DNA from: Raillietiella orientalis
Taxonomy: Eukaryota
Reading direction: 5' to 3'
NCBI GenBank assembly: GCA_036172245.1
Contig: JAYWIR010000003.1
Span: 6,696,001-6,760,000 of the forward strand
DNA: 64,000 bases
The notes under the pieces are model-generated. The model was not told where the DNA came from and ran no database searches. It saw only the letters and a list, made by a program, of their open reading frames with translations. A program made the position numbers and the translations under genes. Positions 22,797 to 54,240 of the stretch are shown here, in pieces; the stretch's first letter is position 1, and each line of letters opens with the position of its first letter.

Positions 22797-24197
22797 ATGG
22801 GCCGGAAGAAAATCCAGATTTCCAGAATCACAGACGAGCGCAACCGCCAGGTTGGTAACCGCACCGCACTGCCCGTGTGTGCCCCAGACCGACCCCCTTC
22901 CCCACCGCCGCCTCCCCCCCCCCCCCCCCACTCCACCCCACCCCACCCCATGTAGGTCACGTTCAACAAACGCAAATTCGGAGTCATGAAAAAGGCGTAC
23001 GAACTCAGTGTGCTGTGTGACTGCGAGATCGCGCTCATCATCTTCTCCTCGTCCAACAAACTGTACCAATACGCCAGCACGGACATGGACAAAGTGCTGC
23101 TCAAGTACACGGAGTACAACGAGCCTCACGAGTCGCTCACGAACAAGGACATAATCGAGGTTGGTGGCGTCCCCCTCCCCGCCTCGCACCGGGCGCCCGA
23201 CGGCCCCGGGGTCCACTTTGCAGGCGCTGAACAAGAAGGAGCACAAGAACGGGAACTGCAGCCCCGACAGCCCGGACGGCGACGCGGACTGCGACTACAC
23301 CATCGCCTCGAGGCACGACAGCAAGTACAGCAAGATAGACGACGAATTCGACGGCCTCGTCATGCAGCGCGGCGCCATAAACGGTGGAAGAGTAAGTTGC
23401 GTTTGACGTTTCCGGAAATAAAATGCCGTCTCGGACGCAGACTCCTTACAATCTGCCCGTGGCCTTCGCTCACGATTCGGGAACGCCGTCCAGCGTGTCA
23501 GGCAGCACGCTGATGCACAGCCCTCGCCCGTCGTCGTCGTCGTCGGCATACCTGGACGTGGGCAGCACCAACGGCTACGCGGGACGCACTTCTCCCCAGT
23601 CCGCGTCTCCCGGACCGAGCAACCTGGCGACCAAGAGCCTCAGGCACTCGGACGCACCTGCCAGCCTTCCTGCGCGTAACGCGAACCTCCGCGTGCTGCC
23701 AGTGCTTGATGACGGCGGACGGGCGGCGGGCACATCCGTTCCGGCGCTGTCTGCTTACCCTTCTTCGTTTAGCCAGGACTTTGCCGAGCTTGGACTTGCA
23801 GGATTTGGTTGGCCCCCAACAGCTCCGCAAGGACCTCTGTCAGCAGCTGTGCAAGCAGCTGGCTTACCTACTTCAGTGCCTCATTTGTCTATTTCGACTA
23901 GTACCCCACCTCCCCCAATGAGTCCCCAATCTCTAGGCCCTCGCATTAAAGCGGAGCCCATATCTCCACCCCGCAGTATTGAACTCCGGATTGACTCTAG
24001 TCAGTCAAGTGCCACCCAGCTATCGCCCTCAGGTGAGTGCACTGAGCAGCTCTGTAACAGGAGGTGCAGGATGTTGAATTTTTGCAGGCCACCTGACACC
24101 AGTACCCTGTCATTCCTCCAACCCAGATGCCATTCAAGACTATGAACCCTTGCCACCTCTCAAGCGACCACGTTTAATTGATGGATGGCCATCTTAG
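22797..24197 (+). CDS. Mef2: Myocyte enhancer factor 2 (MADS/MEF2 transcription factor); exons 22797-22850, 22956-23159, 23224-23391, 23441-24032, 24088-24197
   Basis: Spliced translation begins [94 protein letters not shown]. It also contains the IKAEPISPP phospho-SUMO motif and ends [11 protein letters not shown]. All four introns are GT-AG and keep the frame. Confidence 0.97.
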
Positions 24198-24263
24198 TGC
24201 CCAATGGAGCTCAAATATATTTTGATACATTGAACTCTGGATGCGTTGTGTTTACAGGAACGA

Positions 24264-25537
24264 TCACAACAAGCGCCATCGGTGAACGTTGAACGCTAAC
24301 ATGAACACGGCGAAACCGCCCAGCGCACAAATCCAAGGTGTCAGGCGCCAACAGGACCTTGAACCGGCTGCTGCTTTGGGCTGACCCAGCATTCGGCGGT
24401 AGAGCTGGCGTTCTTGCTCACCTTCCTGACGCAATCTCTGCTGGAGGCCGGCCAGGAGCTGTTGCACTGCAGCCGAGGCAGGCTCCACTTGGAGGGCCTT
24501 TTGCAAGTCCGCTATGGCTTCTTGTAAACTGCCCTGGGCGGATAACACTTGGGCGTGGCGAAACAGAGCTTTCACGTTACAGGGATCACAGCACAGAACG
24601 GCTTCGAGGGCTCGCAGAGCAGCAGGCAAAGATCCCAGCTTGAGCTGGGCTGCCGCCAGGTTATTTTGTGTCTGCAGGCGCATCTCGAGAAGAGGGCGCA
24701 CTTCTTCTGGAGAATCACTGGATTCCTCATCCAAAAATTCTATCGCTCTCCGGTAGCATTGAACCGCGTGGCTATACTCAGCTCTACGATACCAAAAGTT
24801 GCCCCGTTCTCGCTTTCTTCTCCTAGAAACCGCTAAAGGAAATACGTCGACTCGTCGATCTACTGACCCTATCTGCAAACGCATCTTTACGGGATGACAC
24901 TCGGGCTCGGGCTCTATCTTCAGCAGGGAAACTTCGTACACGAGCCAAGTATCTGGGGGCACCATGCAGTCAAGTCCTTGAGAACCATATGCAAAGCGTG
25001 GGGCCATCACAACCTCCGCAGTTTCCATGAGCTCCATGAACGGCAATGCCATATCTAGTCCTTGCACAACCTGCACTTGAGCATGTATACCTTCAATGCT
25101 TTGCACATAGCAGAAAAGGACCCTCACCTCTAGGTCACCAACATGACAGTGATACTCCTCAAGCCTTTCAACCTCTTCTCCACTTTCCTTCTGTCGGCCA
25201 ACAGCATTCAAAACAACGTAGCTGCCCCACTGCGGCTTGACACCAGATTCTCCACAATGCAACACCTATTTCATGCTGCTGGCAAACCGACATCAACACG
25301 TCAAGTCCGACTCACCCTCTTGCAAAGTTCGTCACTGTCCACTATTTGAACCCATTCCGAGCTGCAAACATCACTGCTCTGCTGCGCAGGGGATGTTTCC
25401 TTCGCACCCTCTTTATTGCCGTTATCTAAGACTACATCTCCACATGAGTTCTCTATGTGCTCTGAATGTTGCTCTCCTTCCAGAGCCATGTTGCTCAGCC
25501 TAAAAGGTGTACCATCAAGCTTCCCTGTTTCACCCAT
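24264..25537 (-). CDS. FKBP8: FKBP8/FKBP38-like protein (FKBP domain, TPR repeats, C-terminal transmembrane helix); exons 25537-25316, 25265-25128, 25070-24868, 24822-24264
   Basis: FKBP-like motifs VGDLE|VVQGLDMAL and APRFAYGSQG...VPPDTWLVYEV. TPR motifs RERGNFWY, NNLAAAQLKL and NVKALFR. Hydrophobic C-terminal tail WICALGGFAVFMLAF. GT-AG introns of 50, 57 and 45 nt. Confidence 0.9.
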
Positions 25538-25598
25538 GACTGAGGGACCACTTCCCCACCCACCCTTAACAACACAAGTGCACGTCAAATGTATTTTG

Positions 25599-26578
25599 TC
25601 AGTGGGTTACAGCACCAGGTCTCCGCCTACCCTGCAACATCGCAAAAAAACGTTAATGATTCACAGTCCGGAGCTTCTCCCGTCCCATTTACCTGCAATC
25701 GATGCAGTTCTGCGCTCATCTGATGGTAGCGGCTTCGTTCTGTCTCCAGCTGGGCATGCAACTCTGTTACCTGCTGCATCAGCTCGGACTTGAGCTGCAT
25801 TTCCTGTTCCAGAAGGGCTGCAAGCTGGTTTTGATCCTGCAGCTCAGCCTGCGCTAACATTTCACATAACATCTGATTGCGTTTTTGTGCAATGTGCAAC
25901 TCTTCCTCCTGGTGGGACATCTGCTCATGCAGCTCACTGATTTCTTTTTTGCTATCTTCAAGTTGCTGTTGCAAATTGTCCAACAAACGCAATGCCTCAT
26001 CATATGAACTGGGATGGGCTATAGATTTGACCTGTGAATTTTTCTTCAACTCCAACTTTTGGGTTGACTCATACTCTAGCAGGGATTGGTGAAGGGCTGT
26101 CTGTAATTCTTTTTCAAAGACGTTGCTAGCTTCTTTTGGCAGACTGGTGTTTCCTTGCACTGCAGTACTTGCCTTTTCATCCGTTTTCTTTCTTTCTTTG
26201 TATTGCGAATCTTCAAAATTGGGCTGAGTTGCTGAGCACTTTGCCTTGCTTCCAACAGGAGGGCGCCGCCCAAAGGCAAGTGCTTGCAGCTACAGAGATT
26301 ATTACAAGTCAAGTTCAGCGGACAATAGGCACAACCTCCTGATCCACTTTCTTTTTATTTTGTTTCTTTGTTGCTCTTTTCACATTACTCACACCTTGTT
26401 GCTGAGAGTTACACTTGTTAGTGGCAACTTTGGTTATTGGGATTTTTTGTTGGAATTGATCTTTAGCAGGAGCTCCAGTTTTACTTTTTATCTTTTTAGC
26501 CTTGGATTTTTTTTCACTCGCACAATCTTCATCTTCAATTTTTAAAACCGAAAATCGAGATGCAACCACTACATCCAT
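25599..26578 (-). CDS. GKAP1: G kinase-anchoring protein 1-like coiled-coil protein (~290 aa); exons 26578-26336, 26289-25693, 25631-25599
   Basis: N-terminal ASRFSVLKIED, LQALAF, FEKELQTAL..SLLEYE, and a coiled coil with KRNQMLCEML and VTELHAQLETERSR match recalled GKAP1 motifs. The last exon reads GRRRPGAVTH*. Confidence 0.82.
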
Positions 26579-26892
26579 TTTTAAACTTAAACCTGTAAAT
26601 TCTATACACATTCACTGATTTCTACATAAGGTACATAGCATTGATACAAACAAATAATGGTCAACAGTAGGAACTAAACTGCATAAATGAAATTGAATCA
26701 GCATTTCATCGTCATAACCAAAAGGCATTGTTTCGAAAGCATACAATCGAACAGTGGTAAAGACAGGGATGAGAGAACCAAAACTCCCAATCCGGAAGGC
26801 ATGCATTTTTCAAAGTAGGATGTGCATGCAATAAAAAAACAAGAAAGTTTCCCGCAGAAGGAACACTCTTATGATGACGGAAACGCATTTAA

Positions 26893-34039: not shown

Positions 34040-35354
34040 TCAATTCACAGACTTCAGCTCGATCTCGAAAACAAGTGTGCTGTTCGGGGGAATGTCGGAT
34101 TCCTCCTCAGCACCGTATGCCATTTTCGGAGGAATCGTAAGTCTCCTTTTACCTCCCACTTTCATACCCTCCAGGCCGATGTCGAGTCCTTTGATGACGT
34201 CACCTTTACCCAGTTTGAATTTCAAAGGCTTTCCTCCGAGCAAGCTGTCGAACTCTTTGCCGCCACTCTTTAAACGACCAACATAGAAAATGCCCACTGT
34301 TTTTCCGGAGGAAGCTTCCGGTCCAGAACCGACAGCGAGATCCTCCGACAAAATGCCTCCCTTCTTCATGACCTTATTGAGGGCTTTCGCACTGTCACTG
34401 GGAAGATTCTTGTGACTGCTTGGGGTAGAGACATCCTTCTTGATCTCGTTTTTCTTTGCGGACACATCCCCGTTGGGGAAGATGTTCTTTTTGGCCGATC
34501 TCTGACCAGATTGGGCTTCTTTGCTGCTTTTCGCGACCGCATCATCGAAACTTTTAGAAAATTTGGCCTGAGGGTGTTTGTCTTGAGTTGGCTTTTTGAG
34601 AGCGGACTTGTTCTTGAGGGCAGAATTCTGTGACTTGTCCTGCGCTGCTTTCTTACTCTTCCCAACTAGCAATGTGCTCATCTCCTCTGCAAATGATCTG
34701 TTTTCTACGTTAAGCAGCCACCAATGCTCACCTTCCGTATCCATCTCATCGTCCGAATCATTGAGCTCATCGTCCTCATCAGTGTCTTCGTAGGGCAGCA
34801 TGTCCAAATCTGCAAGCATGCCATGCCAAGTAATCCTTACCAAGTGTAATATGCGTACCACTGCAACCCTCGTCCTCGTCCTCGTCATCCTCGTCTTCGT
34901 CATCGGAATCATCCTCATCTTCTACTTCGATGGGAATTTTCCTTGGTGCTTTCTCAGCCTTTACGTCTGAATCCTGGCTGGGCACGTGAGGCCGCTTTCG
35001 CTTGCGATCGGCCAGCAGTGCTTCTTCCTCTTCCTCCGAAAGGAGGGAATCATCGTCCAACAAATATCCGCTCAAGTACACTGGACCATGCCCTTGTACA
35101 GAAAATGACAGCTTTTTGTCCCTGGGAGTGAAGTTCAAGTCCACAGGTTGTTGTGAGTGTGTGTGTGACAGATTGCACAGCACGAATTCCTCCTTATCCA
35201 CTTTCAGGAGAAGCACTGTTGAACCTTGAGCTGAAGATGAAGCTTTACGGCCATCCAGGGCTGCCATTGATATGTGAAATGCTCTTTTCACTACGTGAAC
35301 ATAATCTTTGCCTGGTTCGAGGGCCAGCCCCCAAAAACATCCTTCTTCTTCCAT
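34040..35354 (-). CDS. FKBP39: Nucleoplasmin-like-domain FKBP peptidyl-prolyl isomerase (FKBP39/Fpr3-4 type histone chaperone); exons 35354-34859, 34809-34040
   Basis: N-terminal NPL domain (FWGLALEPGK, FHISMAAL, LCNL, GPVYLSGY), acidic and basic tracts, and a C-terminal FKBP domain (YVGRL, EFDS, VIKGLDIGLEGMKVGGKRRLTIPPKMAYG, IPPNSTLVFEIEL). One 49-nt GT-AG intron. AATAAA at 34029-34024. Confidence 0.92.
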
Positions 35355-35390
35355 CTACATAGAAAAACAGTACAAACAGGCGAATTTGAA

Positions 35391-38300
35391 TCAAGGCAAG
35401 CTTATTTTATCCCTTCCACCCGTTTCATTCCCCAATCTGCACAAGAGCTCCCCTGCCCGACGAGCAAGCTCCGAAAAGGACGGCCTCTTCCCCGGTTGTA
35501 AATCCCAACAAGGAAGCATCAGTAAAGTGTAAACTTGGTCAGGACAGGCAGGAGGGCAAGACCACCTTGTTCCTTGTTTCAGCTGCTGCAGATGTGCAGC
35601 CAACTGATCCCCCTGTCCCAGAAGGATGGGTTTTTCACCCCAAGAAAAAATTTCATACAGCACTACACCGTATGACCACACATCTGATTCCACGGAGAAC
35701 TTGCGGTTCTCAATTGCTTCTGGTGCATACCTAGCCTCAATTAAGTACACAGTAGCTTCACAGTGCACCTTACCATCTTACAGGAAGATCACGATCAGTA
35801 TGCATGCGATAATAGTCACTATCCCCTAAAGAGCGAGACAAACCAAAATCCGATATTTTCACAAGATAGGGGTTAGCAACTAGAACATTGCGGGCTGCTA
35901 AGTCACGATGAACAACTCTCTGACATGCAAGATAATCCATGCCACACGCCACATCAAGTGCGTACTTCATCTGATTATGCAAGCTCAATGTGAACTGTTG
36001 ACTAATCAGATGCATTAACAAAGAACCAAGTGGCATAAACTCCATTATCAAAATGAGCTCTCCACCCACTTGTGCTATACCCATCATGCTGACCACATTT
36101 AGATGGGAAAAGTGTTTCATCAAATTAATTTCATGCAATAATTCTTCGTTATGGGCCTTCAGCTTTTTGGCAGCAACTATCTGGTCATCATGACCAATTA
36201 GCAATGCACGTCTCACTTCTCCATAGTGACCTTGGCCTAATGGTTCCAACAGCTGCACTTGCAGATAATGGACATCCTCTACCAATGACTGATGCGTACT
36301 GTATGCTTGATTTTCTTCAATTTGTTCATATATGTTATTCATTGCGACACCTGAAACTCTGAATACCATTCTGTACCTCTGCAACTTTACCTTGCAATAA
36401 TAAATGGGTTAGACAGCGCAGAACTTCAGATGCTGAGCAACGTTTTTTGATATCCTTTTCCCAACAAGATGTCATAATATTTATGACTCTGTTGGAACAG
36501 TTCTGAGGAAAAGGAAGTGATTCGCCTTGCTTCCAATGCAAACAAGGGTTTCGTCCTTCAGAAAAGATTTCCCATAATGTGGTGCCAAAAGCAAAGATAT
36601 CAGCTGGAGGCTTCTTAACTACACCATTCATGCATTCTGGTGCTAACCAAGGAGCACTGGTTTAAAAAACCCTGTTAACCACACGATACACTCTACTCTA
36701 TTCTTACTCTACAGACTCTGCTATGGGTAACCCAGGGTCTCCTAGAAGCACTACCAAGTTTTCCAGAACAGAAGTTCCTTCTGAGTATTTAACAAAGAAA
36801 TTCCGTGCACGGATTTTACCATGGATCCATTCCATTTGTTCCTACAAATCAATACTAAAGACTGATGTGCTCAACACTACTTACCAAATAGTGTAAACTA
36901 CGTGCAGCAAAGCAAGCAATTCGTAATAAATGGGCAAACTGAAGATGCCCTTGTCGGCAAACTAAAAATCGATCCAGAGAACCTAATGGCATTTGTGTGA
37001 TTACAATGCCAAGGATGTTTTTGCTTAAAACAATGCCTTGTATAGGAACAAATAGGCCTGCTGTCCAATGACTAATCCGATCGCACAAGGCCAAAAAATC
37101 CTAATGTCAGTCAGCATGCCTAACGTAAAGGTAATTACTGACTTCTAAAAATTGCTTTCGAAATGCAGGATTTAAAGTGCGCACTAAGCATTTGCGGCCT
37201 TTGACTTCCCACACACTAGTGAACTTTCCAAAGTGAAGGCAAGCACCTAGAGATATCTCAGAAGATGGAAAGAGCTGAACTACTCCTGGAATTTCATTGC
37301 AGTCCTTTCTGATGGAGACAAATAAAGGTGAGGGATCTGTAAAGGAAACTAACAAGTTATTGACTTTGCCACAACAATTACCAAATTCTGATGGTGGCAC
37401 TAGCTGTGATAAAAACCAACAGGACTGTCTGTCCAGCAATTCTCTTAGGTGATCAAACTTTTCTTCATTATCATCTAAAGACCATTTTCCTCCAACTTGC
37501 TTAATCTTGAAAGAAGCTGGTGCCTTCCTTAAATCAACCTTGAAAATCCACATCATTAGTCTAACTTACCCATTCACCAGGCAAACATCCAAGAAATAGC
37601 AATCACATTCTTCACTGCTCTCACGCAGAAGATAACTACCTTTAGCATAGTTAGTATGCTGCTTGAGTTTATGGGATGCAAATGCATAGCTAACAGGAAC
37701 ATGCCATGGTGGTCAAAAACTGGACTTACCCAAATGGACCATGACAACGTAGTGATATCAGAGAGGCTACCGAAGAACATGGCAATTCTAAGCACAAACA
37801 TGAATGCCATGATTTCAACAGATGATGGTAAACGTCAAGGCAGCAAACAAAATCATAGGCCTCCTCAGTAGAACTGAACGTAAAATTCATGGGTTGTCCC
37901 TTCTGATACCACAAGCAAACTCTGGCTTCAGTAAGCAATGCATAAGACAAGTCTTCAATGGTGCATATCAGTTCAGCCTACATAAAACTGCATCATTTTC
38001 TGAACTTTCCATATCCATCAAAATGTTGAAGAACATGTTTTTACAATAAATATGAGAAAAAGGTTTTCACATAGAATGCTGCTTAGCATACAATGACATT
38101 TAGATATAATTTTTATGATTACACATCATAATTTAGGTATTATACTTTGCCTTATACCTAACCATAAGAAATTATATCTAAATTGTTCCAGAGTAATTAG
38201 AAAAAAGGTTGTTTTATCGATGCTTAGCAAAAAGAAAATTCAAATATGATGACAAAAAAACGGCTATATTTAAATTTCATTGTATGCTAAGCGTTGATAA

Positions 38301-40893
38301 AATGATGCTTACAACCATCTAAAACAGCTGTGTTGGAACAAAATCCATTTTAGAGCACATTCTACTTTTTGCCTCCACTTTATAAAATTAGAATTGGCTG
38401 AAAATGAAAACAGAAAACCGTTTTTTCTGATTACTAGGCTGCATAGTTCATAGCTATCTTACAGCTCTCACCAATCACAGGTTGAAAACAAAAAAAAGAA
38501 AAAAGCATTTTCTTGCCCTTACAAGGTTTCTGAACACAGGCTGTCTTGCATTTGAAATCATGCCGTAATCAAATAGTTAATGTACCAGGAACAGCAACAC
38601 CTTCATATGCAAAACACCTACACACACACCTGCACATTGGCAGTGAAGGACATTTGCATTATAAAACTAAAATGCTAAGTTTCAATATATCTAACCTTAC
38701 AGTTCATGAAAATATGGAGTATTTTCACAAGAACCTTTACTAAATAAATATGCTGATACTGAGCTCCCTCAGAGAGTGCAAATTACTATTTTCCCATGAA
38801 GTAACATGCGAATTTTCTTTTCTAGTTTTTTTTAAAATTTGCAAATAAAATATAGAAATTTAATTTTTCTTTTTTCTTGAAGCAATCAATTGATGGATAC
38901 TTTCTGTAAATTTTGTAGAAAATTTAAATTGAGTATTCCTTTACTACTGAAGTATTATGTAGTCCGTGATTTAGATTACAAATTCAAAAACAAATTCTTC
39001 AAACAGAAGACCATGAAACTTAAGGTATTAGAAAACTTAATAAAACTTATGGGAACAGTTTTGTCTTTAGAAGACCAATAAACTTTAGGTTGCAATCATT
39101 ACCCTGGAGACAAAATTCAACACTTAGGGATATTTTTACCTAGCACCTGACATCAATTTCATATTTGTAGTACCAAGGCAATTACAAACAGAAAGTTTTT
39201 TTCCCTACATAACCGCAAACTTAATTCTAGCAATTTGCAAAATCCTCCTAACTAAAAAACTTCCACATGTACATATACAAAGCCAATATACAAACAAACC
39301 ATGGAACAATTGAAACATTTGCCAACATAACATTCTATAAGTCTTTTACTTTAATTTCTTATAGATATTTCTGGGTAGACACACAAGCAGATTTAAGTAA
39401 GCAAGTTACAAAAAGCTCCAACAATCAAATATTTCAGTTGTATTTCCATAAACGTTCATGGAGCCTCAGCACAATTGACATCTATGATATAAAGCAACAC
39501 ATCATCAATAAAATTACGAACGTTTTAAGTTCGACTAGTAAAATTTTATATCAGATGGACGATGAGATAAAAGATAATAGTGCAAGAAAACTTATGTGGG
39601 CAGCAAAGAAATTTCTGCAGAGCTTTTTTGAAGTTAATACTATCTGTCATAAGATGATTACTTAATTTCACCAGGGTGACAGAGATTACTTAAAATGTTA
39701 CTGAATGAACATAATGTTTTGATGTTTTGCATGCACAAAAATATTGCTAGTCATACAATGGTCATTTTTCAAGGCACATTTTAGTTTTAATGAAAACCTC
39801 ATATAGAATTGTTCAGCCACCTACATCTCATTTGAGAAAACTGATTTCTCTAGTCTTTAAACATCTTGAATGCATACCAATTACATTCGGTGTTCTGAAA
39901 TCAAAAATTAACAACAACTTTAAAATGCTGATCACAAATTCTCACAATTTACATATGAATCAATTTACATTTAGAATCAACTGGAGATAATGCGCCTTTA
40001 TCGAAAAATTACAGAATCACTAAATGCTTTCATTACAAATATTATAGCACTTTACACAAAGGGCTCGGAGAGAAGTCTGAATGTATTTCAAAACTTTTCT
40101 CACGAAACCACCAAACAGAATGCAAAAGTTTTCAAATACACACCTCTTTTAAGGAACAATCCTGAGAACGACTATACAATCCTGCCTTCATTCTCAGTGG
40201 ACTCATAATTTGTATGACACTTTTCATATTTTTTAATTCTGTGCAACTAATTTGAATTTTGCAATTATAGCTTTCACAACCTAAATTTTCATTTAACGAA
40301 CACAGAGTATTCAAATACACCAATTTTATTTCGGTGGCACTTAATAGGCATTCATCCATAATTTTCCTGAGTTGCTTGATAACCTTGGTTTTTATGTATT
40401 TCATTTCCAGTCCCTTATAAAAGTTTTTTGGCAGAAAATCTTTCAGTTCTACTGCATCGCCCACATCCTTGGTCATACGATCCGTAAATTTTGCGCGATT
40501 CTCCAGATTTTTCCTGTATATATCCATAACTACAATGCCCAATAACTTCTCTGAGTGAAGTTTATCAATCTTGAGATCACCTATTAGAAGTTCTTCTCTC
40601 AATTGTTGAAAGCAATATTCAAACAAGTTATTGTCAAAAATCATCAAGCTTCTGAAGTCGAGTGGAAAATACCTTATTTTAAGCATGGCATCGCCAGTTC
40701 CCATCGATTTCATTTCGTGAATCCAAGTTTTCGTATCCGATCTCCAGAACCCCAAACACATCGCACTGATTGGTTTTATTTTCAGCGTCCTGCAGCATTT
40801 CCTAATAAGACTGCTGATATTATCATCATCGCCATAAAACAAATTCACATTCTCAAATGGTGCAACCGTATGCACCACCAACGGATTCGACAT
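35391..40893 (-). CDS. JAK: Janus kinase (hopscotch-like): FERM, SH2-like, pseudokinase and kinase domains; multi-exon, with a ~2.17-kb intron at 37978-40143. The start could instead be the ATG at 40923. Not all internal junctions were resolved.
   Basis: FERM segments KIRYFP...FEYCFQQLRE and CTIEDL. CHGPFG followed by SH2-like GSYLLRES. Pseudokinase IHGKIRARN and ADIFAFGTTLWEIFS. Kinase GQGHYGEV, HRDLAARN, KISDFGL, DYY activation loop, PVRW|YAPE and SDVWSYG. Confidence 0.92.
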
Positions 40894-43800
40894 ATTGCAA
40901 CCAAAGCGACTCCTGGAGCACATGGCTCACGGTTGCTACACGATTTTTTTAATTTCAGGAGAAATTCGTTTCAAATCTCAAGCATTCCCATTTGTTTTGG
41001 TCAGCGTATTGAATTTTTATGCAAAATCTACCTCAATGAATGTTCTGAAATCGTGGAAGCTTTTATTTCAAAGCATTTTCTATCAAGATGAATACGTTTA
41101 ATTTTAAAATCAGATGCTCTGTGTTGCACAGTTTTTAAGTTTTTTCAAGTTCCGCATTTAAGGAACGCTCTTTGATACACACGTCGATGCTTCGATATGA
41201 GTAAACTAGCAGAATTCTGATGAACAGTGCCATGCTGACATTTAAATGAGCAATTTTGGGTTTTATTTTCCTCAATTCATGATGGAAAAAAAAGGTTAAT
41301 TTAAAACACAATTCTACGAAGAGATAGACGACTGTCAAGTTAACTATCAACGTTAATGATATTCTTTTTCCAGATGCTCTGTGATGTTTCATAGCTATCC
41401 ATGGAAATCTTTCAGATGGCACTGATTTAGTTACCAATAGTATAGTCGTATGAAATCTATTCCATAACACTCCAAGAATTTGCAAGTTAATCTGTTAAGC
41501 ATTAGTAAATGTCTGCGGTATAATGAGTTTCATCCAAGAGAGTTTACTAAATGTGCCACAGCCAATAAATTATTGGGCAATTATATAATGGATCTCGTAC
41601 CATCATCCTTCATAAATATATATATAAATAATAGAGATTATTGTATAAGTTCAAAATCCTACATTACTGGCTTAGAAATGATCGCTATCTATCATTAGCA
41701 TTAATACAAACAAAAGAAAAAGAAATCACGAGTACCTAACTACTGTCAAATATCTTCAATGAGATATTGGAACTTTTGCATTTTTTATATCAGCAAAGGT
41801 GTCTCTACCCCCTTTTTACTGAGGTATATGGAATCTGCCTGTTCTGTACTCCTTCCTAACCTGAAGAATAGCAAAGCGTGAAAAGAAAGACCCCGCAATG
41901 AGATTTGGTGAATTTTTCACCTTTTTGTATGAAAAACTGCCTTTAAAAAACTGTTCCAGGGGTTCTTCCAGTTTTTTTTTTTTTTTCCCCTAGAGAAAAA
42001 TGATTGGACTTTCAAAGGAGTTTCATTATTGGCAATGGATACTAAAGCAGAATAACAGATGTCATCTTTTGAATCTTTCAGCCATATCGAAATACTTGCA
42101 AAAATGGATTTTGCACTCCAGATTTACATTTTGTACTCCAGAACTGTCTAACACGAGGAAAACATGTGTACTCTACGGTGACATAAGGGAACTCGATACA
42201 ACCATTGTAGGGTTTTCCATTCTGCAGGCAATCTCTAGACAAACTGGACAGTGGCAGTTGTTATGGTTGAAAATGGAATAATTGTGTACGTAGATTAGAC
42301 CTCCATCTGCTGCCTTCACGGACTGGAAGCTTTGCTCAACCATACAGCCCATCAAGAATCCACAGAAAGTTTATTTTTCGGAATACTCAGGCTGACAATG
42401 TCTCTGAAGATCCGCAGTCTATACTAAAGCAGACTGTAAAGATTTGCACGAGCATGTCAAGTCTTTTCGAGATGGAATGAAGAAAGGGATAAGTTCTCCA
42501 GTATGTTTGACCCATTCCCATCCTCTAACTACACAGCATTCCTTGTGAATATGACACCATACGCATTATGATATGAAGTATATTATTTGGAATGCACTGA
42601 AATGTAATTGATCCCATTAATAACCCCATGGAGTCATATCAGACTAAGGCACTGTATGCAGAATCAGCTGCGTATGAAGACTGCCTCGCGATACATATTT
42701 TTGTATTGCGAGGCGGTCTTACAGTTCCGTTGCAATACATTTGTAAATACTGTTGCAACTGATTCACTAACGGAAATTGAATTGATATGTACTTCCTTAA
42801 TTTGGAAGCGCAATACATTTTTAGTGAATTTTATTGTCCAGTTGATGCAATGCAACGGAAATTATTACATAGTCTTTGGCACAGGTATTTTTAAGGAAGA
42901 ATGTATATGGTCTATCGTACAACGAGCAGGGCAGTGAAAGGTATTTGTTGTTGACGAGTTCAACATTTGGATATGATCTAGACAGTAAACTAAAAATTAA
43001 AACCACTTGCTTTTGTCAAGAAATCATAAGAGCTATGCGGTTGTGGCTGTGAATGACGTAGTGGGACACCTTGAGGTAAGGGATTTGAGCTCACATATCC
43101 AATTTGGATTTCCTCAGTGTTTATTTTACCCTGCAGTGTTATTCTGAGAACAATTTATTTTAGGCATTGTACTTTGCACCGAAATACTGTTCTCTCGAAG
43201 CACTGCCACTGCATCCTAGGAGGGCGGGGATCAGCGGGGCAGCAGTGCCGACACCCCGCAGTGTTCTGCCCGAGACACATGGAACAATGTCCTGACTCAA
43301 GTGAATGCGGCGTTGCAGAAGTGCACACTGGAAACAGAAGCCCAAGTGAACATTCTGTTCGCTGCAGCGGTCACAGCGGTGGCTTTCCCTGAGATATCTT
43401 CCCGAATCTCCACTCGAGTCGAGACTTTTCATGAAAGTGCTCCAAACTCAAGAAGGAAAGTATTTTACAAATCACACGGACATTGATGTGTGTGTGTCTG
43501 TGAAAAAGAAAAATCAGACTGGGAGAACCACTCTTGATCTCAGAATTCAGATAAGGAAGAATCGGTGTGTTTTCAGTTCTGCCAAACACAAAAGAAACGA
43601 GCAGTCGAAAGTCCCCCAGACAGAGACGCCGAACGCGTGCGAATTCCCCGTTTTCCGCTATCTTTGTGCGTTTTAGAAGTACAATGACTCAGGCGTCTGG
43701 GACCGCCTTTTGCTAGTTACGTGGACCAGCTGTAAACGATGTCGCAACACCTCTCTTTGGTGTTTCTTTCTTCTCCGAGTTCAAAATGGTGAACGACTTT

Positions 43801-46383: not shown

Positions 46384-48031
46384 CTAGGACAGCATGCAGT
46401 AGCCGTCGGACACAGCGGCGGCATCCGGCCTGGCGGGGTCTGCTGCGGCGGTGCTGCAGGAAGAGAGAGAAATGGCGCGCGGCGAGGGGCATCCCACTCA
46501 CCGGTTGAGCCGCATGTGGCTGCGCACCAGCTCGCCCTCGGCCAGGGCCGCCATGAGGGACAGTTCGCCGGCCAGCACGGTGGCGCAGATGACGCTGGCG
46601 AGTAGGGCGGCGTTCTCGCCTGGGCACCCTTCGGACGGGCCGGAGGCTCCCAGCAACTGCAAGCAGGCGCGCTGCGACGGCAGGGAGGTGCCCCCGCCCA
46701 CCGTGCCAACCTCCAGGCAGGGCATCGTGCAGGACACGCGCAGGGAGCGGTCCTCCTGGGCGTCCATCTGGGTCAGGCAGAAGGAGCTGCACACGACCTG
46801 GGCCAGGTCCTGCCCCGTGGCGAGGAAGATGGCAGCGACGATGTTGGCGGCGTGGGCGTTGCAGCCGCCGACAGCGCCCGCCAGAGCGGAGCCCACCAGG
46901 TTCTTGGAGACGTTGAGCGAGGCCAGGCGCCCGGCGGTGGTGCGCAGCGTCCCCTCCAGGACGGACGCCGGGACGACCGCCTCGCACACCACCTCGCGGC
47001 CGCGCCCGTTGATCCAGTTGAGCGCCGTCGCCTTCTTGTCCGCGCAGAAGTTGGCGCTCAAGGACACCACCTCCAGGTCCTCGAACTCCTGCTCGAGGGC
47101 GTGCAGGGCGACCTCCACCCCCTTGGTGACCATGTTCATGCCCATGGCGTCCCCCGTGCTCGCGCGGAAGCGCAGGTAGAGGGTGCACCCTGCTGGGCGG
47201 CAGTCCACACCCGCCAGCCGTGCGAACCTGGACGTCGAGTCGAACGCCGCCTTCAACCTCTGGAAGTGGGCGGCCTCGCGTAGCCAGTGGCGGGCGGCGC
47301 TGGCGGCGCAGGCGTGAGCGAAGGCAGGCGCGCGGGCGGCGGTACTCACTCGGCACGAGCGGCGGAGGGCAGGCGCACGGCCGCGCCGCGCGTCATGCCG
47401 ACCTCCACGACGCGGGCGCTGACACCCCCGGACTGGCGCAGGGCGGCACATCCGCGGTTGGTGCTGGCCACCAGGCAGCCCTCGGTGGTGGCCAGGGGCA
47501 CGAAGAAGGGCTTGCCGTCGACCGGCAGGGGGCCCACAACGCCCACGGGGACGGTAGCGTAGCCCACGACGTTCTCGCAGCACACGCCGCTGACCTTCTC
47601 GTACTCGTAGTGGTGGAAGGGCAGATCACCCAGAGCGCCCTCCTTCCCGGAAAGGGCCTCCACGGCTGCGCGCCGCACGCGCACCGCCCGACCGGCGTCG
47701 CCGAGGGCGCATTCCAGCTGGTGCATTCGCAGCCTCCTGGAAACAAGCAGCAGCTCGCGCAGCTCGTGGTCCGACAGGCACGAGAGAGAGGCGTGACCCT
47801 GGGGGCAAGAACGGGAGGGGAGCGATCGTGTCCCGCCCGACCTCTGCTTACTTTCAGGGGAGGAGCAGGAGATGGCTGCTGCTGCTGCTGCTGCTGCCCA
47901 CGAGCTGCAGAGCCGGCGCCACCGCCTTCGCCGGCCTCCCCGGCCGCAGGTGCTGCTAGCGGCGGCGGCGGCGGCGGCGAAGCGGGCGCCAAGCACGCGA
48001 ACTCCGGCGAGAAGCGGATGGCGTCCTCCAT
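46384..48031 (-). CDS. HMGCR: HMG-CoA reductase paralogue, catalytic domain only (~498 aa), C-terminal CaaX; exons 48031-47852, 47798-47350, 47299-46502, 46453-46384
   Basis: Motifs [51 protein letters not shown] and LVRSHM are intact. Intron positions match the second copy. The start Met at 48031 is inferred and less certain than the rest of the model. Confidence 0.9.
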
Positions 48032-50907
48032 GTCCTGGTGCGGGCGGGGTCAGAGTGAGATCACGGAGGAGGAGGAGGAGGGGGGGGGATGTCTCCGAGG
48101 GCACGCCAAGCGGTCGCGCGCTGCGCTCCTCCGCCCTCCCTCCCCCCACCCTCGCGACGGCGTGACGGGACGGTCCCGGGTCCCGCGGCACCAACTCACC
48201 GGCGGTCGCCCAGGCTCGGAGGGTCTCCCTTGTTGCTGCCGGCGAGGTCCGGCGAAAGTGCGGTCGGTGGGAGCGCGGCAGGTCACGTGCACTCCTGACG
48301 GCCGGGCTCGCGCCTCTTCTGTGCAGCCCGCCCCATCACCGCGGGAGGGTTTTTATGTTTCGGACGACCTCCGGGAGATTGGAAGGACGGGAACGCGCGC
48401 GTGGGGACCGTCTCTCCCGAAGCCCCTAATTGCTTGCCGGAAGGTCGGGTATCCGAGGAGCCCCGGACCGCATGCAAAGAGCCCTTCCCCCCGCCCCCTC
48501 CTCCTCTCCCTAACCCCTTCTCCGCGCGCGCATGCCGACGGGCAGGCGGCGGCGAAGCGCCTCCACCGCCACGCACCGCGGAACGCTCGCCAATTGCGCC
48601 ACCTCCCTGCCCCCCGCTCGCTCCGACCCACGAGGGCGTCCGCTCCCCGCCTCGCGCGCGCGAGGGCAACTCGGCCGCCCCGTAGTTGCCGGCCACCGAG
48701 CGCTCTCCGGTCCCGCGCGGGGCAGCTGACACCCAGAAGCGTGCCGTCGCCACGGAGCCCTCCTCCCGTAGCAGCAGGCGCGCGCGCTCGCGTGTCGGAT
48801 GAACGCACGACACCCCTCCCCTCCCCCCAGTGGGGTTGCTTCCGTCTGTGGTCCGATGGCGGCCAGGGCTCCACTGTCTCCACCGACAGTGGCAGGTCGG
48901 CTTCCGGGCGCGGCCCTAGGCTGCGGCAGATGGACACAAACAAAGGCGACCGAAGAGCTGCCCTCGCTCAACTGGGGAAGCGAAAATTAGGGCTTCCCCT
49001 GATGCAATGTCCCCTTCTCAGGAACGGCGAGCGACCCAGGTCGGACGGCTGTCTGGTTTTGCCCGGAGTTCCCGACAGGGCGTGTCGCAGCGGTCACTGT
49101 GCCGGTGTTTCCCGCGTGGCTGTCCACTACGGCTGCTGCCGTTTCGTGGCCTGCCCGACCGAGGCTCCGCGAGAGTGGGACACACTGAGGTTCCCCTGCA
49201 GCCGTCGACTTGTCGCGCATGCGTGGTGCTCGCCGGTCTGCTCCAAGCTGGCGCGGGAAGCTCCGGAAGGCAGAAGGGGAGGAAGAGGCGGTCGGGGGCG
49301 AAGCCCCGTTCGCAGTCCCCGAGACAAGGGCCCACCAGCTGGGACGATCCGCTCCGCGCCTTCGCTCCTAAGGATACGCCGAGCCAGAGGGGGGGAGGCC
49401 GTGGGGAGGGGAGGTGCCTGGGAGCCATCGTCTGGCGTCTCAGAAAGAGCTCCCTCCCGCAGTAAGGGTGCGTAGAACGCGCGCAGGACCGAACCCCGCT
49501 TGGGTCTGCACACCGGAAACGCGGAAGCAATCCTCCTCCCTCGTTTTTTTCCCTTCTTTCCTTCATTTCAAAGCTCTCGGAGGCAGCGAGCAGCATCCCG
49601 GATGCACTGCATCCTCCGTCTTGGGAAGCTACCGTGGTGCTGTCACCTTGCAGCGGTGACCTCTTGCCGCTGCTCTGGGGGAACGGCCTGGTCTCTGCTC
49701 GAGTCTAAGGAACCAGGCGCTTTTTCCTCCTCCTCCTCCTCCTCCTTTTTTCGTCTCCACCGGCTGCTGGAGCGGTGAGTCAGCTGGGAAATCCGTTGTG
49801 TCGAAGGGATGGTCGACGCCGCCCGCGGAGGCAGCATGCATCAAAAGAGTTCGGGGGGAAGGGAGAAAGCACAAAAGGGGATTTCGGAAAAAGTGCATCT
49901 CCTGAGCAGTCAACAAACTCGAGCTCGGAAGGTCAACGGCACAGGGTGAATCCAACCCATGCACATTTGACCCAAACGTCAAAAGATGCCTCAGTTACTC
50001 GTAACGGACGGCAACGGCGTGCGGTTCCACGCTCACCGTCGCTGTGCGCGATCGGTAAATCCTCTGCAGCGCGCGTGCGATCGGTTACCCACGGGGGTAG
50101 CGAGGGTGAGGACGCCTCTGGGCAGTTTTGCCGCTGCTCGAGCCTCGTGGACCTGGGTTCCGTCGGAATGAGCGTCGGGTCGGAAGGTGCCTTCCTGGAG
50201 GAGGGAGGGGGGGCGGGGGTTCTGGGCAAGAGCGACAGGAAAGCCTCTTCGGCGAGATGCGCCTCCGTATCTTCGGACAACAGGGCGAACGGTTTCGAGC
50301 GCACCTCAGTCGATAAGGCAGCTGCCCAGAGGCGTTGACAGCAGTGGTCGTGGACTTGGATCACTTATCCCGCGCCTTTTTTTCGCTCTTGGAAACGAGG
50401 GGGAGAGCAGGCGAGGGGATGTGCTACGCTTGGTCGTGCTCGAGCACGCCGTATAGTGGACGCGGGTGGCAGCACGTGGTTTTCTGGAGAGCTCCAGGCG
50501 CCGGAACACCTGCGTGATGACTCAAGGATTTCTCCAGCTCTCCAGGAATTCAGGGTTTCCCTTTCCTGGCTGATGACGATTTTTTCCACGAAGAGAAATT
50601 TTGTGGGCTACCCCACCGAATGTCATCAGAGATGGGTTCGCGTGCGCCGAACCCCCCCAATGGGCAGGATCGGTGTTCGGCTCACCCGATCTCTCTTATG
50701 GACGTGTATATTCCAAGGCAGAAAGAAGGAAGGCCGTCAAGAATCCAGAAATTTTCCGCAAATGATTTTTCCCAAGAGAATCGGCAGAGCGCGAGGGAGG
50801 GATGTGCAGCTATTCGACCCACTCAACGCAGCGATCCACTGGGGTGACGCGCAGGGTGGGATGTCTCATAACGCAGCTCGAGATCCTCCTTGTGATTTTT
50901 ATCTGCG

Positions 50908-50947: not shown

Positions 50948-53931
50948 GCAGTGGACGAGGACATTTCCGAATTCCGGCAGCGTGCGTGTCGCAACTGTGC
51001 ACGGCCTAATAGGCGAGTGACAGCGAAGAAAGTAGGAGCGCGCTTATCGCACAGTCGGAGGGCGGACGACCCATCGGATGCTTGAAAGTGGCAAGACACG
51101 AACACTGAAACGGAGTTCACCACATCTCGGAAGGCTCCCTTGCGAAAACTTGTTGCGAAACACGCTGGCAAATCCACTGGGAGGACAACGCGCGCGCTGT
51201 GCTTGCGAGACCACCCACAAGTCCCGTTCCGACGCTGAAGAGAGCCGATGCTCCAGATGTGTTCGCAGTCGCCGAGGAATGCAAACGCCGCTAGTTGATT
51301 ATGCATTCCGATGTTGGTTCCTTCGCTGCTCGTCTCGGGCTACACTGTTGCTCCTTGCATGGGGAACAGTTTTAAAACTGCTTCGGCGCGGCCTCCGAAC
51401 AAGCGATGGTGCGGCCGCGGGCAATCCCAGCTTCTCGGCTCCGAAGACGTCTGCTTTCATTCGATCCCACGGTCTTGCTTCTTCGGAGCGTGCGCCATTT
51501 TGGATTAGCCGCGCTCAATGCCCGGGGTGGACCCGACCAAGAAGACACGCCAGAGGACACTTCCCCTGGTGGCCGTTTTCGCAAGTGGGGGGAGCAACTT
51601 GCCGACCGGCCCGTGAACGATGGTTGGCCTTTTGTTTTTCGATGGCATGAGAAGGGGTGGAGGAGGTCAGAGGACAAGTCGGGGAGGGAATAAGGGTGAT
51701 GCGGCCGAGAGTCGCAGGGGGAGATTTTTTTTGCCAGCAACTCATGATCAGCTGCTGCGGATGGGACGTGACTTGCAATAGGAACGAGACAGTAGGGCTA
51801 AAGTTGATCTGACTAGGAAGGTAGGATTGTCGGGTGAAGGCTGAGGAGAAAGAAGAAGAAGAAGAACGGGGACAGACGCAGACTCTTGAGCTAAGAAGTA
51901 CTATTACTGCACGTCGTGGCGTGAGCGGAGAGATGGTGGGACGTGGGGAGAGGAACTGAGGGTGAGATACATTCCCAGCCTCAGATCGATTGCCAGTCAG
52001 CTGTTTGTCGAAACCGGGATCGGGAATCCGAGTGGAAACAAAAGGTGGCCTCGAGGGGGAGAATACGACGATGAGTCTCTTGGAAAAAGGGGCTATCAGC
52101 TCTGCTCTCAGCTTACCCGGGAAGTTGTTTGGGGCGACTGCTAGACGAGATCTCGTCGAAGCATTCCTTGACCTCCTCAGAGTGGGCGGCTGAGAGTAGG
52201 GAGACCGCGGGGCCGATCGTGGGGCGAACAAAGCCGCTCTTCGTTATCAGGGCAAGCGTTTACGCTTCCCAAAGTCGGTTGGCGAACCTCCTTGATGGAT
52301 TGCTGCTAGCGGTAGCGGTGATGCGCGGAGGAATAGCAACCCTTCCAGCAACATTCAACCTACCTTTTCACTGTTTGTCATTTTATTAAGGTTGAAGCCG
52401 GATAAGAGGAATCGAAGTACCATTTTATTCCGGTTGCCTTACAAAGATCTCCCTATCCTGTAATCCATTACGCGATAACACAATGGATGCAACACGTGAT
52501 GTGGCGGGATGTGTTACATCCATTGCAAGCTGCCCAAATCTTTTCCCTGTTCTCTTCACGAAGACAAAAAGAGCTTTGCTGCAGAATTCGAGCAAAATCT
52601 CCATAAATAACTGATCAAAAGGTTTGACTTCTGTAGAGATGACGAGCTCCCTGTTCCAATCTCTCGCAAGCGAAGAACTCTGCATGCAGAGACAGACGAT
52701 GGAAGAGACTTGGAGGAGCAGAATGGTGGGGAAGAGGAGTGAGTAATGGTAGCAAAGGGATCGTTTCTCTTTTCGCTCGGAGAAAACGGTGGGAAAAGAT
52801 AGGGCGGGTGTCAGGTCTCATCTGGGTGAGCTGCATCCGTTGCCATCGCATTAGGGTTGCGAACGGCGGAACCGGAACCTTGAACCAAGAGATTGGGGTT
52901 TCACTGTCTGCCGCATCAAGACTCGATAAATCAGTTGATTCACAGCAAGTTATCCATCAGGTGAAGAACTCTGCTGCAAGGACCGGCAAACATGTGTCTT
53001 CCTCCAAATCTCTGCACGAGTCATCCATGCTTTCATGGCATCCTTAACGAATGGAATGCCTACTTGCTAGCCTCTTTACAGCGTCAGACACTCTAGGCGT
53101 AGGACAGCACCCAGGTGAGTTTCAGTTCCCTATTTGGACGACTTTCTTCACTGCAACATGGCGACATGCATCTACTTGTTTATTTGTATTTTGCTTATAC
53201 TTTCCAGGTGCACTTAACGTTAGTGCATTCTGATATTTATTTATCGTTAAACGTATTAAGTTTCCACGTTCGGCAAGCGCGAGGTCTGGAGCAAATCCGG
53301 CCACCATAGGACGCTCTGCGAAGGAATTCATCTGCATCCGGCTTTTTTGAACCGTGCATGTGGGTTTCTGCAGGAATGCATGTTCGGACCCAAGCAAGGT
53401 GGACGAAGCACAGGCGAGGTGTGCACTATAAAATTTCCAGTATGGATCACGCAAACGATTGAAAGTCTAAAAGAAAAAGATTACCATTCCATGAGCAGCT
53501 GGACAATTTCTGCCGGGTCATGAAATTCAATTTTACAAAGGGATCGTAGTTTGCTGAAATGATGATTTGCATGATTACGAGCAAAGGTCCCAGAGTCCCG
53601 TCCTCGAGAGCCGATGCGTGCCCCCCACTTGAAATCCGGATTTTGCAAACGGAGCTCCTCAAACTCTAAATTTTTGCTGTTCAGAACATCCCTCCTAAGG
53701 AACAAATTCTTGTATCAAAGGTCGAGTGCTCTCACCCGTTTTCACTCACCACGAAAGGTGCGATTCGGTGCAGGCGAACGCGAGGAGGTTTCGGGCGGTG
53801 GCTTCGAAGAAAAGTGGTGGGCAAGTACGTGCCCTATTCCTGCTTGGAATGCTTGATGAGGCCACCCCTTTTCTTGCCAAAATGATAGTCGAAATTTTTT
53901 CAACTTTCAGATTGTAATAATAATACTCATT

Positions 53932-54240
53932 ATAATAATGCTGACTTCTGCTTTATTGCTAATTCTACTTTGGACTCGGTTAACACCAGGGATTTCGCTG
54001 CTGGTATTTGTAACTCTATTTTTTGCTCTACTTGGATTTATTGATGATTATTTAAAATTAAAGGCGAATCACCATCGTGGTTTACATGTAAAAACCAAAA
54101 TACTTCTTCAATTTATCGTTGCTCTGATTAGTGTGTCTACACTTAAGCTATATTCTGCTGAAAGTATTACAGCAACGTCCTTATTTAAAGGAATAATAGT
54201 CGACTTTGGCTACCTACATGCTTCGTTTGCTGCATTTGTA
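53932..54240 (+). pseudogene. mraY: Internal fragment of bacterial mraY (phospho-N-acetylmuramoyl-pentapeptide transferase), Wolbachia-like; probable endosymbiont-to-nucleus insertion
   Basis: Translation ILLWTRLTPGISLLVFVTLFFALLGFIDDYLKLKANHHRGLHVKTKILLQF...IIVDFGYL..FAAFV contains the MraY GFIDDYxK...GL..K.K motif. The upstream PTMGG and downstream SNAVNLTDGLDG motifs are absent. The segment is markedly AT-rich compared with its flanks. The Wolbachia assignment is from memory. Confidence 0.85.

Follow-up and report, generated by a model that had tools for sequence, protein, structure and literature searches.

In animals, operons whose transcripts are resolved by trans-splicing have several separate origins, among them those in nematodes, tunicates, flatworms and chaetognaths, and the cause is debated. 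To our knowledge, copepods and amphipods are the only arthropods in which trans-splicing has been described. In the passages cited here, distances between cistrons in established systems are short, typically about 100 nt in Caenorhabditis and 23-30 nt in Oikopleura (PMC1488885), with medians of 99 bp in C. elegans, 31 bp in O. dioica and 1 bp in Ciona (PMC7986045). Same-strand gaps below 100 nt account for 9.2% of Ciona gene pairs in group I of one study and for under 1.1% in each of its three other groups (PMC1488885), and tunicates are described as using one leader for single genes and operons alike (PMC1488885, PMC7986045). In the chaetognath Paraspadella gotoi, operons defined by gaps of less than 250 bp are given as containing 18% of genes, and many tandem duplicates lie about 10 kb apart (PMC12460157). 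Among arthropods, the cited part of a Drosophila study based on FlyBase counts 159 dicistronic pairs, or 2.5% of protein-coding genes, most of them inconsistent with scanning (PMC4528330). Copepods are described as trans-splicing a spliced leader, which is followed by 5' UTRs of 17-24 nt, and as having AAUAAA in only about half of their mRNAs (PMC4664967), and spliced-leader trans-splicing is also reported in the amphipod Parhyale (PMC5111886). The relevant passage of a 2021 survey states that copepods and amphipods are without reported operons (PMC7986045), and no paper on arthropod operons was found among the literature matches listed.

The locus considered here lies within a window of 64,000 nucleotides (the whole stretch of DNA analysed, to which all positions refer) and contains two tightly spaced gene pairs, GKAP1/FKBP8 and JAK/FKBP39, whose gaps fit the operon distances given in the cited passages (PMC1488885, PMC7986045, PMC12460157). 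Like the tunicate operons of Oikopleura dioica and Ciona, the pairs consist of unrelated same-strand genes tens of bases apart with a candidate acceptor at or next to the start codon, in a setting where a canonical AAUAAA is often lacking (PMC1488885, PMC7986045). Unlike those operons, they are predicted from gene layout, in a host that is more likely an arthropod than a tunicate; and whereas the Oikopleura genome is uniformly compact, the window also holds multi-kb gaps and a 2-kb intron. With Caenorhabditis operons of the SL2 type the pairs share a short gap, and the GU-rich run between GKAP1 and FKBP8 may correspond to the U- or GU-rich element that lies there ahead of the downstream acceptor, as described in the cited passage (PMC1488885). 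Unlike those operons, however, the spacers of the window are shorter (36 and 61 nt) and lack AAUAAA. The presence of JAK and GKAP1, on what we take to be the gene content of nematodes, argues against a nematode host. Tight pairs accompanied by tandem HMGCR copies 10 kb apart recall the chaetognath, whereas the FKBP8 of the window matches arthropods best, a Wolbachia fragment points to an arthropod and the homologue searches gave no relative of chaetognath type. Drosophila dicistronic genes such as stoned and Adh/Adhr likewise belong to an arthropod and have gaps of -34 to 319 nt in the cited account (PMC4528330), a range that covers both gaps here, but the window differs in its long reading frames, its normal number of upstream ATGs and its two pairs among eight genes. 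Finally, copepod and amphipod trans-splicing offers an arthropod setting with short leader-to-ATG distances and an AAUAAA that is often absent (PMC4664967), although the survey passage reports no operons there (PMC7986045) and the leader cores of these groups do not occur above chance in the window.

Gene content and spacing

All four genes of the two pairs lie on the minus strand. The coding part of the GKAP1-like gene (25599..26578) translates without stops and is supported by homologues, with exons at 26578-26393 (or to about 26336 if a weaker donor is used), 26289-25693 and 25631-25599, the last ending in the stop codon TGA at 25601-25599. No Pfam family matched its protein at the Pfam cut-off, and a word-index homologue search with the large exon scored none of 874 candidates; a full HMM search with this exon later succeeded, returning 46 proteins at E<=1e-3 (best 1.8e-11). 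Four of the eight homologue clusters looked up have members named G kinase-anchoring protein 1, from Lingula, Ixodes, Hydra and Diadema, and the other four lack such a name. The motifs SRFSVLKIEDED and LQALAFG agree with the fetched homologues, and the protein combines homology to named GKAP1 with an N-terminal SRF..LK, L..LAFG and a C-terminal coiled coil. Homology reaches the last residue of exon 2. Splicing of the last intron (25632..25692; 61 nt, GTAAAT...TTGCAG, phase 0) gives a tail of 10 residues with three arginines, and a K/R-rich C-terminal tail of 4-14 residues is present in eight of ten fetched homologues; retention of the intron gives a tail of 21 residues without K or R. The earlier note had named an error in the last exon as a threat to its reading; retention of this intron would move the gap to the FKBP8 ATG no further than 89 nt.

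The FKBP8-like gene (coding part 24264..25537) starts at the ATG at 25537-25535 and has exons at 25537-25316, 25265-25128 and 25070-24264, separated by introns of 50 and 57 nt, with a further 45-nt intron possible. Its protein matches Pfam FKBP_C (E 4.6e-8) and TPR_1/2/11, and the best named of its 459 homologues are arthropod FKBP8 proteins at 35-44% identity. With its FKBP domain, the TPR repeats after it and a putative C-terminal membrane anchor, a hydrophobic stretch seen by eye in the translation, the protein has the arrangement of the FKBP8/FKBP38 class. Local alignments to 40 homologues begin at residues 15-73 of the model. Upstream, the frame is shut by TAA at 25609-25607 and has no ATG ahead of 25537; the only other in-frame ATG near the gene start lies 48 nt downstream, which sets the gap at 109 nt at most. 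In a quick tree the protein sits on a branch of 2.29, weakly (75) beside decapods. Its stop codon lies tail to tail with that of MEF2, 118 nt away.

The earlier note had placed the GKAP1 stop 61 nt before the FKBP8 ATG and described a second pair of the same layout, again with an FKBP downstream; positions, gene identities and repetition were all borne out. The second pair, 9 kb from the first, begins with a JAK-like kinase gene (35391..40923) matching Pfam FERM_M/FERM_F2 and PK_Tyr_Ser-Thr (E 6.5e-47), with a second, weak kinase-like exon. Its stop, TGA at 35393-35391, is followed by a spacer of 36 nt (35355..35390) ending in TGTTTTTCTATGTAG, so that TAG directly abuts the ATG, at 35354, of an FKBP39-like gene (34040..35354) with nucleoplasmin-like (NPL, E 1.6e-22) and FKBP_C (E 2.3e-31) domains.

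Same-strand gaps in the window fall into two classes, 36 and 61 nt in the tight pairs versus 5.6 and 7.5 kb in the two others measured, and this split argues that the pairs are real units rather than random neighbours. Four of eight recognised genes sit in tight pairs, and the tight spacing exceeds chance; the eight are Pfam matches to open reading frames, and any genes missed in the large GC-rich gaps would alter the spacing argument. Against the 2.5% of genes that are polycistronic in the fly, according to the cited passage, such a proportion is very unusual (PMC4528330). Both gaps also fall, on one strand, below the limit of about 100-250 nt used for short-gap operons. A gap as short as that between GKAP1 and FKBP8, with a second such pair nearby, suggests co-transcription of the two genes.

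As to the remainder of the window, Pfam searches of 115 open reading frames of at least 140 aa and 103 shorter ones from AT-rich blocks added only a second HMGCR copy, the weak kinase exon and a Wolbachia mraY fragment. The HMGCR copies form a tandem pair 10 kb apart; in a quick tree they group together (99), their very long shared stem lying apart from every other sequence, and their animal matches, from fish, bivalves, insects and cnidarians, are 60-65% identical, with no close relative. HMGCR alone is duplicated, no GC-rich second copies of GKAP1, FKBP8, JAK or FKBP39 being found in the window. Rfam and tRNA scans of the window gave no match, and exact searches of metagenome and metatranscriptome contigs with the first coding bases of FKBP8 and of FKBP39 gave 0 matches each.

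Signals within the spacers

The spacer between GKAP1 and FKBP8 (25538..25598) was scanned for 15 poly(A)-type hexamers and contains the variant AATACA alone, 3 nt after the GKAP1 stop (25590..25595), with neither AATAAA nor ATTAAA; the only other hexamer match in 25750-25300 is an AATAAA at 25417, inside FKBP8 exon 1. Beyond AATACA lie TTGAC (25588-25584), a GU-rich run, TTGTGTTGTT (25568..25577), and two candidate acceptors. The first of these, AAG at 25565..25567, is in frame with FKBP8 and has a T-rich run upstream; the GU-rich run, whose role is conjectural, might belong to a poly(A) site as its downstream element or supply the pyrimidine tract for this acceptor. The second, CAG at 25542-25540, is overlapped by TCAGTC (25538..25543), which directly precedes the ATG.

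The AATACA, TTGAC and CAG to which the earlier note had drawn attention are present where it had placed them, but their reading as recognisable processing signals is not supported, none being above chance. Across the window, 19-20% of ATGs are preceded at 1-3 nt by the end of an AG, and 8-9% by that of a YAG. The 20 nt before the CAG are 40% pyrimidine, a value that lies under the background mean of 0.475, is the lowest when set against 12 cis acceptors and is equalled or exceeded by 80% of 890 AGs taken as background. The FKBP39 acceptor is stronger: its upstream 20 nt are 75% pyrimidine, which only 2.5% of the 890 background AGs reach and which exceeds all 12 cis acceptors examined.

The same note had also judged a fusion protein unlikely. 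The last GKAP1 donor (25693, phase 0) joined after the CAG does run out of frame, meeting a stop 14 codons on, but the in-frame AAG, 25 nt further upstream, had been overlooked: GKAP1 exon 2 joined to 25564 leaves 93 codons open and gives a possible GKAP1-FKBP8 fusion reading. Overlooked too was TCAGTC. The arthropod initiator consensus is TCAGTY, which this motif fits, and it is the sole minus-strand match in 27300-24200, where about 1.5 are expected.

Proposed trans-splicing and its competitors

The account tentatively preferred here, and judged possible rather than probable, is that GKAP1 and FKBP8 are transcribed together and that spliced-leader trans-splicing then separates their messages. 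A single primary transcript would begin upstream of GKAP1 and traverse both genes; GKAP1 mRNA would be cleaved and polyadenylated within the 61-nt spacer, near AAUACA and the GU-rich run; and a spliced leader would be joined to the CAG or the AAG, one of which would act as an unpaired acceptor, yielding a capped FKBP8 mRNA. The second pair may follow the same route through the strong acceptor abutting the FKBP39 ATG, FKBP8 and FKBP39 being in that case downstream cistrons that receive the same leader. Whilst gene identities, ends and spacing are direct observations for the first pair, each of these steps is a proposal. Several observations lend it weight. Gaps of 61 and 36 nt are too short to hold a 3' UTR, a promoter and a 5' UTR side by side. 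An acceptor that both surpasses 12 cis acceptors and touches the FKBP39 ATG is hard to explain unless splicing occurs there. The fit to published operon distances, the occurrence of spliced-leader trans-splicing in some arthropods and a share of tight pairs well beyond the fly rate, all given above, also speak for it. That a fast-evolving, probably arthropod lineage generally places unrelated genes in polycistronic units resolved in this way, which would match the genome-wide mechanism suggested in the earlier note, is a broader and more doubtful proposition.

Several points weaken the trans-splicing reading. The FKBP8 acceptor is ordinary, and a YAG at that position is no rarity; the spacer lacks AATAAA and ATTAAA, and the bases of TCAGTC also match an initiator motif; the absence of reported operons in copepods and amphipods, according to the survey passage (PMC7986045), counts against it, as does the fact that trees leave the place of the host within the arthropods unsettled. 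Copepod and Parhyale leader cores have 0 exact matches in the window and 3 with one mismatch, against 1.2 expected (13 of 100 shuffles reach 3). A leader gene is not expected within this window in any case.

The strongest competitor, itself fairly unlikely, is a mature dicistronic mRNA of the fly type, capped and polyadenylated, from which FKBP8 would be translated by internal entry or re-initiation and without trans-splicing. An arthropod-like host, indicated by the best FKBP8 matches and the Wolbachia fragment, speaks for it, together with gaps inside the fly stop-to-start range in the cited account (PMC4528330) and a spacer free of canonical poly(A) hexamers. Such a message would, however, carry 15 ATGs upstream of that of FKBP8, not below chance (shuffle mean 15.0), which makes scanning through it unlikely; leaky scanning was rejected on the same count. 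Predicted folding of the RNA around the spacer (25640-25500) shows no stability beyond that of shuffled sequences (z 0.72), and the strong acceptor abutting the FKBP39 ATG is left unexplained. Two pairs per eight genes is far above the fly rate, and the proteins here, at about 270 to more than 800 residues, contrast with fly cases in which small peptides are described as over-represented (PMC4528330).

It is distinctly unlikely, though worth weighing, that the two genes are independent and overlapping, FKBP8 having a promoter at the GKAP1 end, with its start at position 25541 (the A in TCAGTC) or farther back within GKAP1, and GKAP1 mRNA ending in the spacer or in FKBP8 exon 1. TCAGTC, the lone TCAGTY on its strand in 3.1 kb, stands exactly before the ATG, and the AATAAA at 25417 could terminate GKAP1 mRNA. 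The locus is compact elsewhere, as at the MEF2 and FKBP8 stops, and a small genome need not mean operons, as the cited passage on Dimorphilus illustrates (PMC7854359). Yet a start at 25541 would leave a leader of 4 nt, too short for normal initiation at 25537, so that translation would fall to the in-frame ATG 16 codons downstream, itself preceded by an out-of-frame ATG. Chance alone would place a TCAGTY within 60 nt about 3% of the time, which makes the motif no better a signal than the acceptor; nothing of this type occurs in the FKBP39 spacer, and the large gaps elsewhere show a genome that is not uniformly compact.

Alternative cis-splicing within one unit, through a shared non-coding leader exon joined either to the GKAP1 start exon or to the acceptor ahead of FKBP8, or through the fusion of GKAP1 exon 2 to the AAG, is quite improbable. 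The open frame across that junction and the T-rich run upstream of the AAG are in its favour, as are acceptor-like AGs upstream of the ATGs of GKAP1 (by 14 nt) and JAK (by 12 nt), which make leader introns possible; but any acceptor is in frame by chance one time in three, and no leader exon was found. Nor did a fused form turn up: BLASTP on length-filtered sets matched neither the GKAP1 model of the window and 12 GKAP1 homologues to 120 FKBP8 homologues, nor the FKBP8 model to 59 GKAP1-type proteins. That the tight spacing is an artefact, whether of a misplaced start or last exon, of a pseudogene or of misassembly, is very improbable indeed, for although both models are predictions from sequence, their reading frames are intact, homologues support and cover them up to the gap, and the alternative start and retained intron described above leave the genes close together.

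Implications

Should the pairs prove to be dicistronic mRNAs or overlapping genes, their spacing would be an ordinary trait of a locally compact locus. If instead the tight pairs are true operons, they would add a new independent case for comparison; and if trans-splicing resolves them as proposed, Arthropoda would gain its first operons of this kind and the system another independent origin.

Two tightly spaced gene pairs

Pfam scans of open reading frames recognised eight genes in the window: MEF2 (plus strand), GKAP1, FKBP8, a JAK-like kinase, an FKBP39-like gene, two HMG-CoA reductase (HMGCR) copies and a bacterial fragment. On the minus strand, the stop codon of the GKAP1-like gene (TGA, 25601-25599) is followed, across a spacer of 61 nt (25598-25538), by the ATG of the FKBP8-like gene (25537-25535). 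An earlier note had proposed that this operon-like layout is repeated within the window, with an FKBP downstream each time, and both points hold: the JAK-like kinase (40923-35391, minus strand, by Pfam; TGA 35393-35391) ends 36 nt before the ATG of the FKBP39-like gene (35354-34040, minus strand), in which Pfam recognises nucleoplasmin-like and FKBP domains. The four same-strand gaps measured on the minus strand are 36 nt, 61 nt, 5.6 kb and 7.5 kb, a two-way split that is the strongest fact for treating the tight pairs as real units, bearing in mind that genes without a Pfam domain could hide in the GC-rich gaps. As animal genomes hold roughly ten FKBP genes, the placement of two of them downstream in tight pairs is unlikely to have arisen by chance. 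The FKBP8-like (24264-25537) and FKBP39-like (34040-35354) genes, both on the minus strand and 9 kb apart, belong to different families, with about 30% identity in the FKBP domain. One JAK-like intron (37980-40146, minus strand) is about 2.1 kb long at roughly 30% GC, against 45-100 nt for the remaining introns of the kinase gene and the introns of neighbouring genes.

Gene models on either side of the spacer

By sequence comparison the upstream gene, whose product begins MDVVVASRFSVLKIEDED, is a GKAP1 homologue. A word-index homologue search returned no match for it; a full HMM search returned 46 proteins at E<=1e-3 (best 1.8e-11), and four of the eight clusters looked up have members named G kinase-anchoring protein 1 (Lingula, Ixodes, Hydra, Diadema), the remaining four being without that name. 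The homologues share an N-terminal SRF..LK motif, an L..LAFG motif, placed here at the start of exon 2, and a C-terminal coiled coil. The translated model has coding exons at 26578-26393, 26289-25693 and 25631-25599 (minus strand). Of ten homologues compared, eight close with a K/R-rich tail 4-14 residues past the coiled coil, and two carry long tails of unrelated sequence. With the last exon spliced on, the tail has 10 residues, three of them arginine; with the last intron retained it has 21, none of them K or R, and translation stops at 25629-25627. The last exon proposed in the earlier note is therefore the better model, its tail resembling those of the homologues. Were it wrong, the gap would be 89 nt. 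In intron 1 (26290-26392, minus strand) a possible alternative, weaker donor (GAG|GTTGTG) would give an intron of 46 nt, versus 103 nt from GGT|GTGAGT, and would add an in-frame lysine-rich stretch such as precedes the L..LAFG motif in homologues. Acceptor-like AGs lie 14 nt upstream of the GKAP1 ATG (26593-26594, pyrimidine content a weak 0.45) and 12 nt upstream of the JAK ATG (40936-40937, a weak 0.35), both on the minus strand; they could be leader-intron sites or trans-splice sites of these upstream genes, or chance.

The FKBP8-like gene (coding exons 25537-25316, 25265-25128 and 25070-24264, minus strand; introns of 50 and 57 nt) encodes FKBP_C and TPR domains recognised by Pfam and, in translation, a hydrophobic C-terminus. 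It has 459 homologues, the best named being arthropod FKBP8 at 35-44% identity, and local alignments to 40 of them start at model residues 15-73. Since the frame is closed upstream by TAA 25609-25607, and the only in-frame start candidates are the ATG at 25537 and one 48 nt downstream, the gap is at most about 109 nt. On its downstream side FKBP8 (minus strand) meets MEF2 (plus strand) tail to tail at 24143-24266, with 118 nt from one stop codon to the other, a distance that requires 3' UTRs that are either very short or overlapping.

Host placement and base composition

Arthropod sequences are the best matches to FKBP8, at about 40%. Between the window's HMGCR and the listed animal hits, which range from fish to cnidarians, identity is 60-65%, and this evenness therefore gives no preference on host group; in FKBP8 and HMGCR trees the window sequences sit on very long branches without resolution. 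A 311-bp stretch (53931-54241, plus strand) has 82% DNA and 63-70% protein identity to Wolbachia mraY; of the 321 positions in the mraY profile it spans 41-144 only. The fragment appears to be endosymbiont DNA inserted into the nuclear genome, which would indicate an arthropod host. FKBP8 matches, HMGCR, trees and mraY fragment point to a probable host that is a fast-evolving arthropod without a close relative in the searched databases. The HMGCR copies (46501-48335 and 56648-58954, minus strand, 10 kb apart) are 72% identical in protein, differ in GC content, one having about 44% and the other about 70%, and pair together in the tree on a very long stem; the sterol-sensing exon has no match in the GC-rich copy. 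Base composition along the window switches blockwise from 30% to 73% GC and back: GKAP1/FKBP8, JAK/FKBP39 and one HMGCR copy lie in low-GC blocks, MEF2 and the other HMGCR copy in high-GC DNA, and long runs of G, C, GA and GGGA occur in the GC-rich stretches.

Signals within the spacer

The AATACA (25595-25590), TTGAC (25588-25584) and putative acceptor CAG (25542-25540) noticed earlier on the minus strand are all present in the spacer; as processing marks for GKAP1-FKBP8 they do not rise above chance. An AG ends 1-3 nt upstream of 19-20% of all window ATGs, and a YAG of 8-9%. Pyrimidines make up 40% of the 20 nt that precede the CAG, the same share as in the poorest of 12 cis acceptors (whose mean is 0.54) and a lower one than the mean (0.475) of 890 background AGs, 80% of which are equal or better. 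Neither AATAAA nor ATTAAA occurs in the 61 nt, the nearest AATAAA being at 25417, within FKBP8 exon 1.

Two features had been overlooked, both on the minus strand: TCAGTC (25543-25538), which contains the CAG and is the sole TCAGTY on that strand in 3.1 kb, and an AAG (25567-25565), after TTGTGTTGTT, in frame with FKBP8. TCAGTC thus fits TCAGTY, the arthropod initiator consensus. The suggestion that a fusion protein is unlikely stands for the CAG: the last GKAP1 donor, spliced to the base that follows it, runs out of frame into a stop 14 codons on. A junction of the AAG with GKAP1 exon 2 would keep 93 codons open into FKBP8. BLAST of the window's two models against homologue sets (120 FKBP8-type, 59 GKAP1-type) found no fused protein.

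Competing readings

Five readings were weighed, and co-transcription in some form, whether as trans-spliced operon, dicistronic mRNA or through cis-splicing, is probable. The likeliest, held tentatively, is polycistronic transcription resolved by spliced-leader trans-splicing: GKAP1 and FKBP8 would be made as one transcript and separated by addition of the leader. The spacing of the tight pairs fits, matching intercistronic distances from the literature (PMC1488885, PMC7986045, PMC12460157), as does their high local density. A strong acceptor at the FKBP39 ATG fits too: TGTTTTTCTATGTAG directly adjoins the start codon, and the acceptor, at 75% pyrimidine, exceeds all 12 cis acceptors and is matched by only 2.5% of background AGs. 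Trans-splicing with very short 5' UTRs in copepods and amphipods, as described in PMC4664967 and PMC5111886, also favours it; the weak acceptor before the FKBP8 ATG counts against it, as does the lack of any operon report for arthropods (copepods, amphipods) in PMC7986045.

A dicistronic mRNA of the fly type is rather doubtful. In flies 159 dicistronic pairs, covering 2.5% of genes, show gaps that range from -34 to 319 nt (PMC4528330), but the 15 ATGs in the upstream message equal the shuffle mean (15.0), the fold of the spacer region is ordinary (z 0.72) and the FKBP39 acceptor is left unexplained. An internal FKBP8 promoter using TCAGTC is unlikely: a start there would leave a 4-nt leader, and that type of motif is missing from the JAK/FKBP39 pair. 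Cis-splicing in alternative forms, with one leader exon serving both genes or with a fusion via the in-frame AAG, is improbable. An artefactual spacing is highly improbable, because homology supports the models on both sides of the gap.

In function, the layout of the GKAP1-FKBP8 pair resembles that of tunicate, nematode and chaetognath operons, and membership of that class is withheld because spacing is the one feature found in common. For now the pair is a well-documented lead that has ordinary competing explanations; if the trans-spliced operon were confirmed, it would add a known kind of operon to a phylum for which none has been described.
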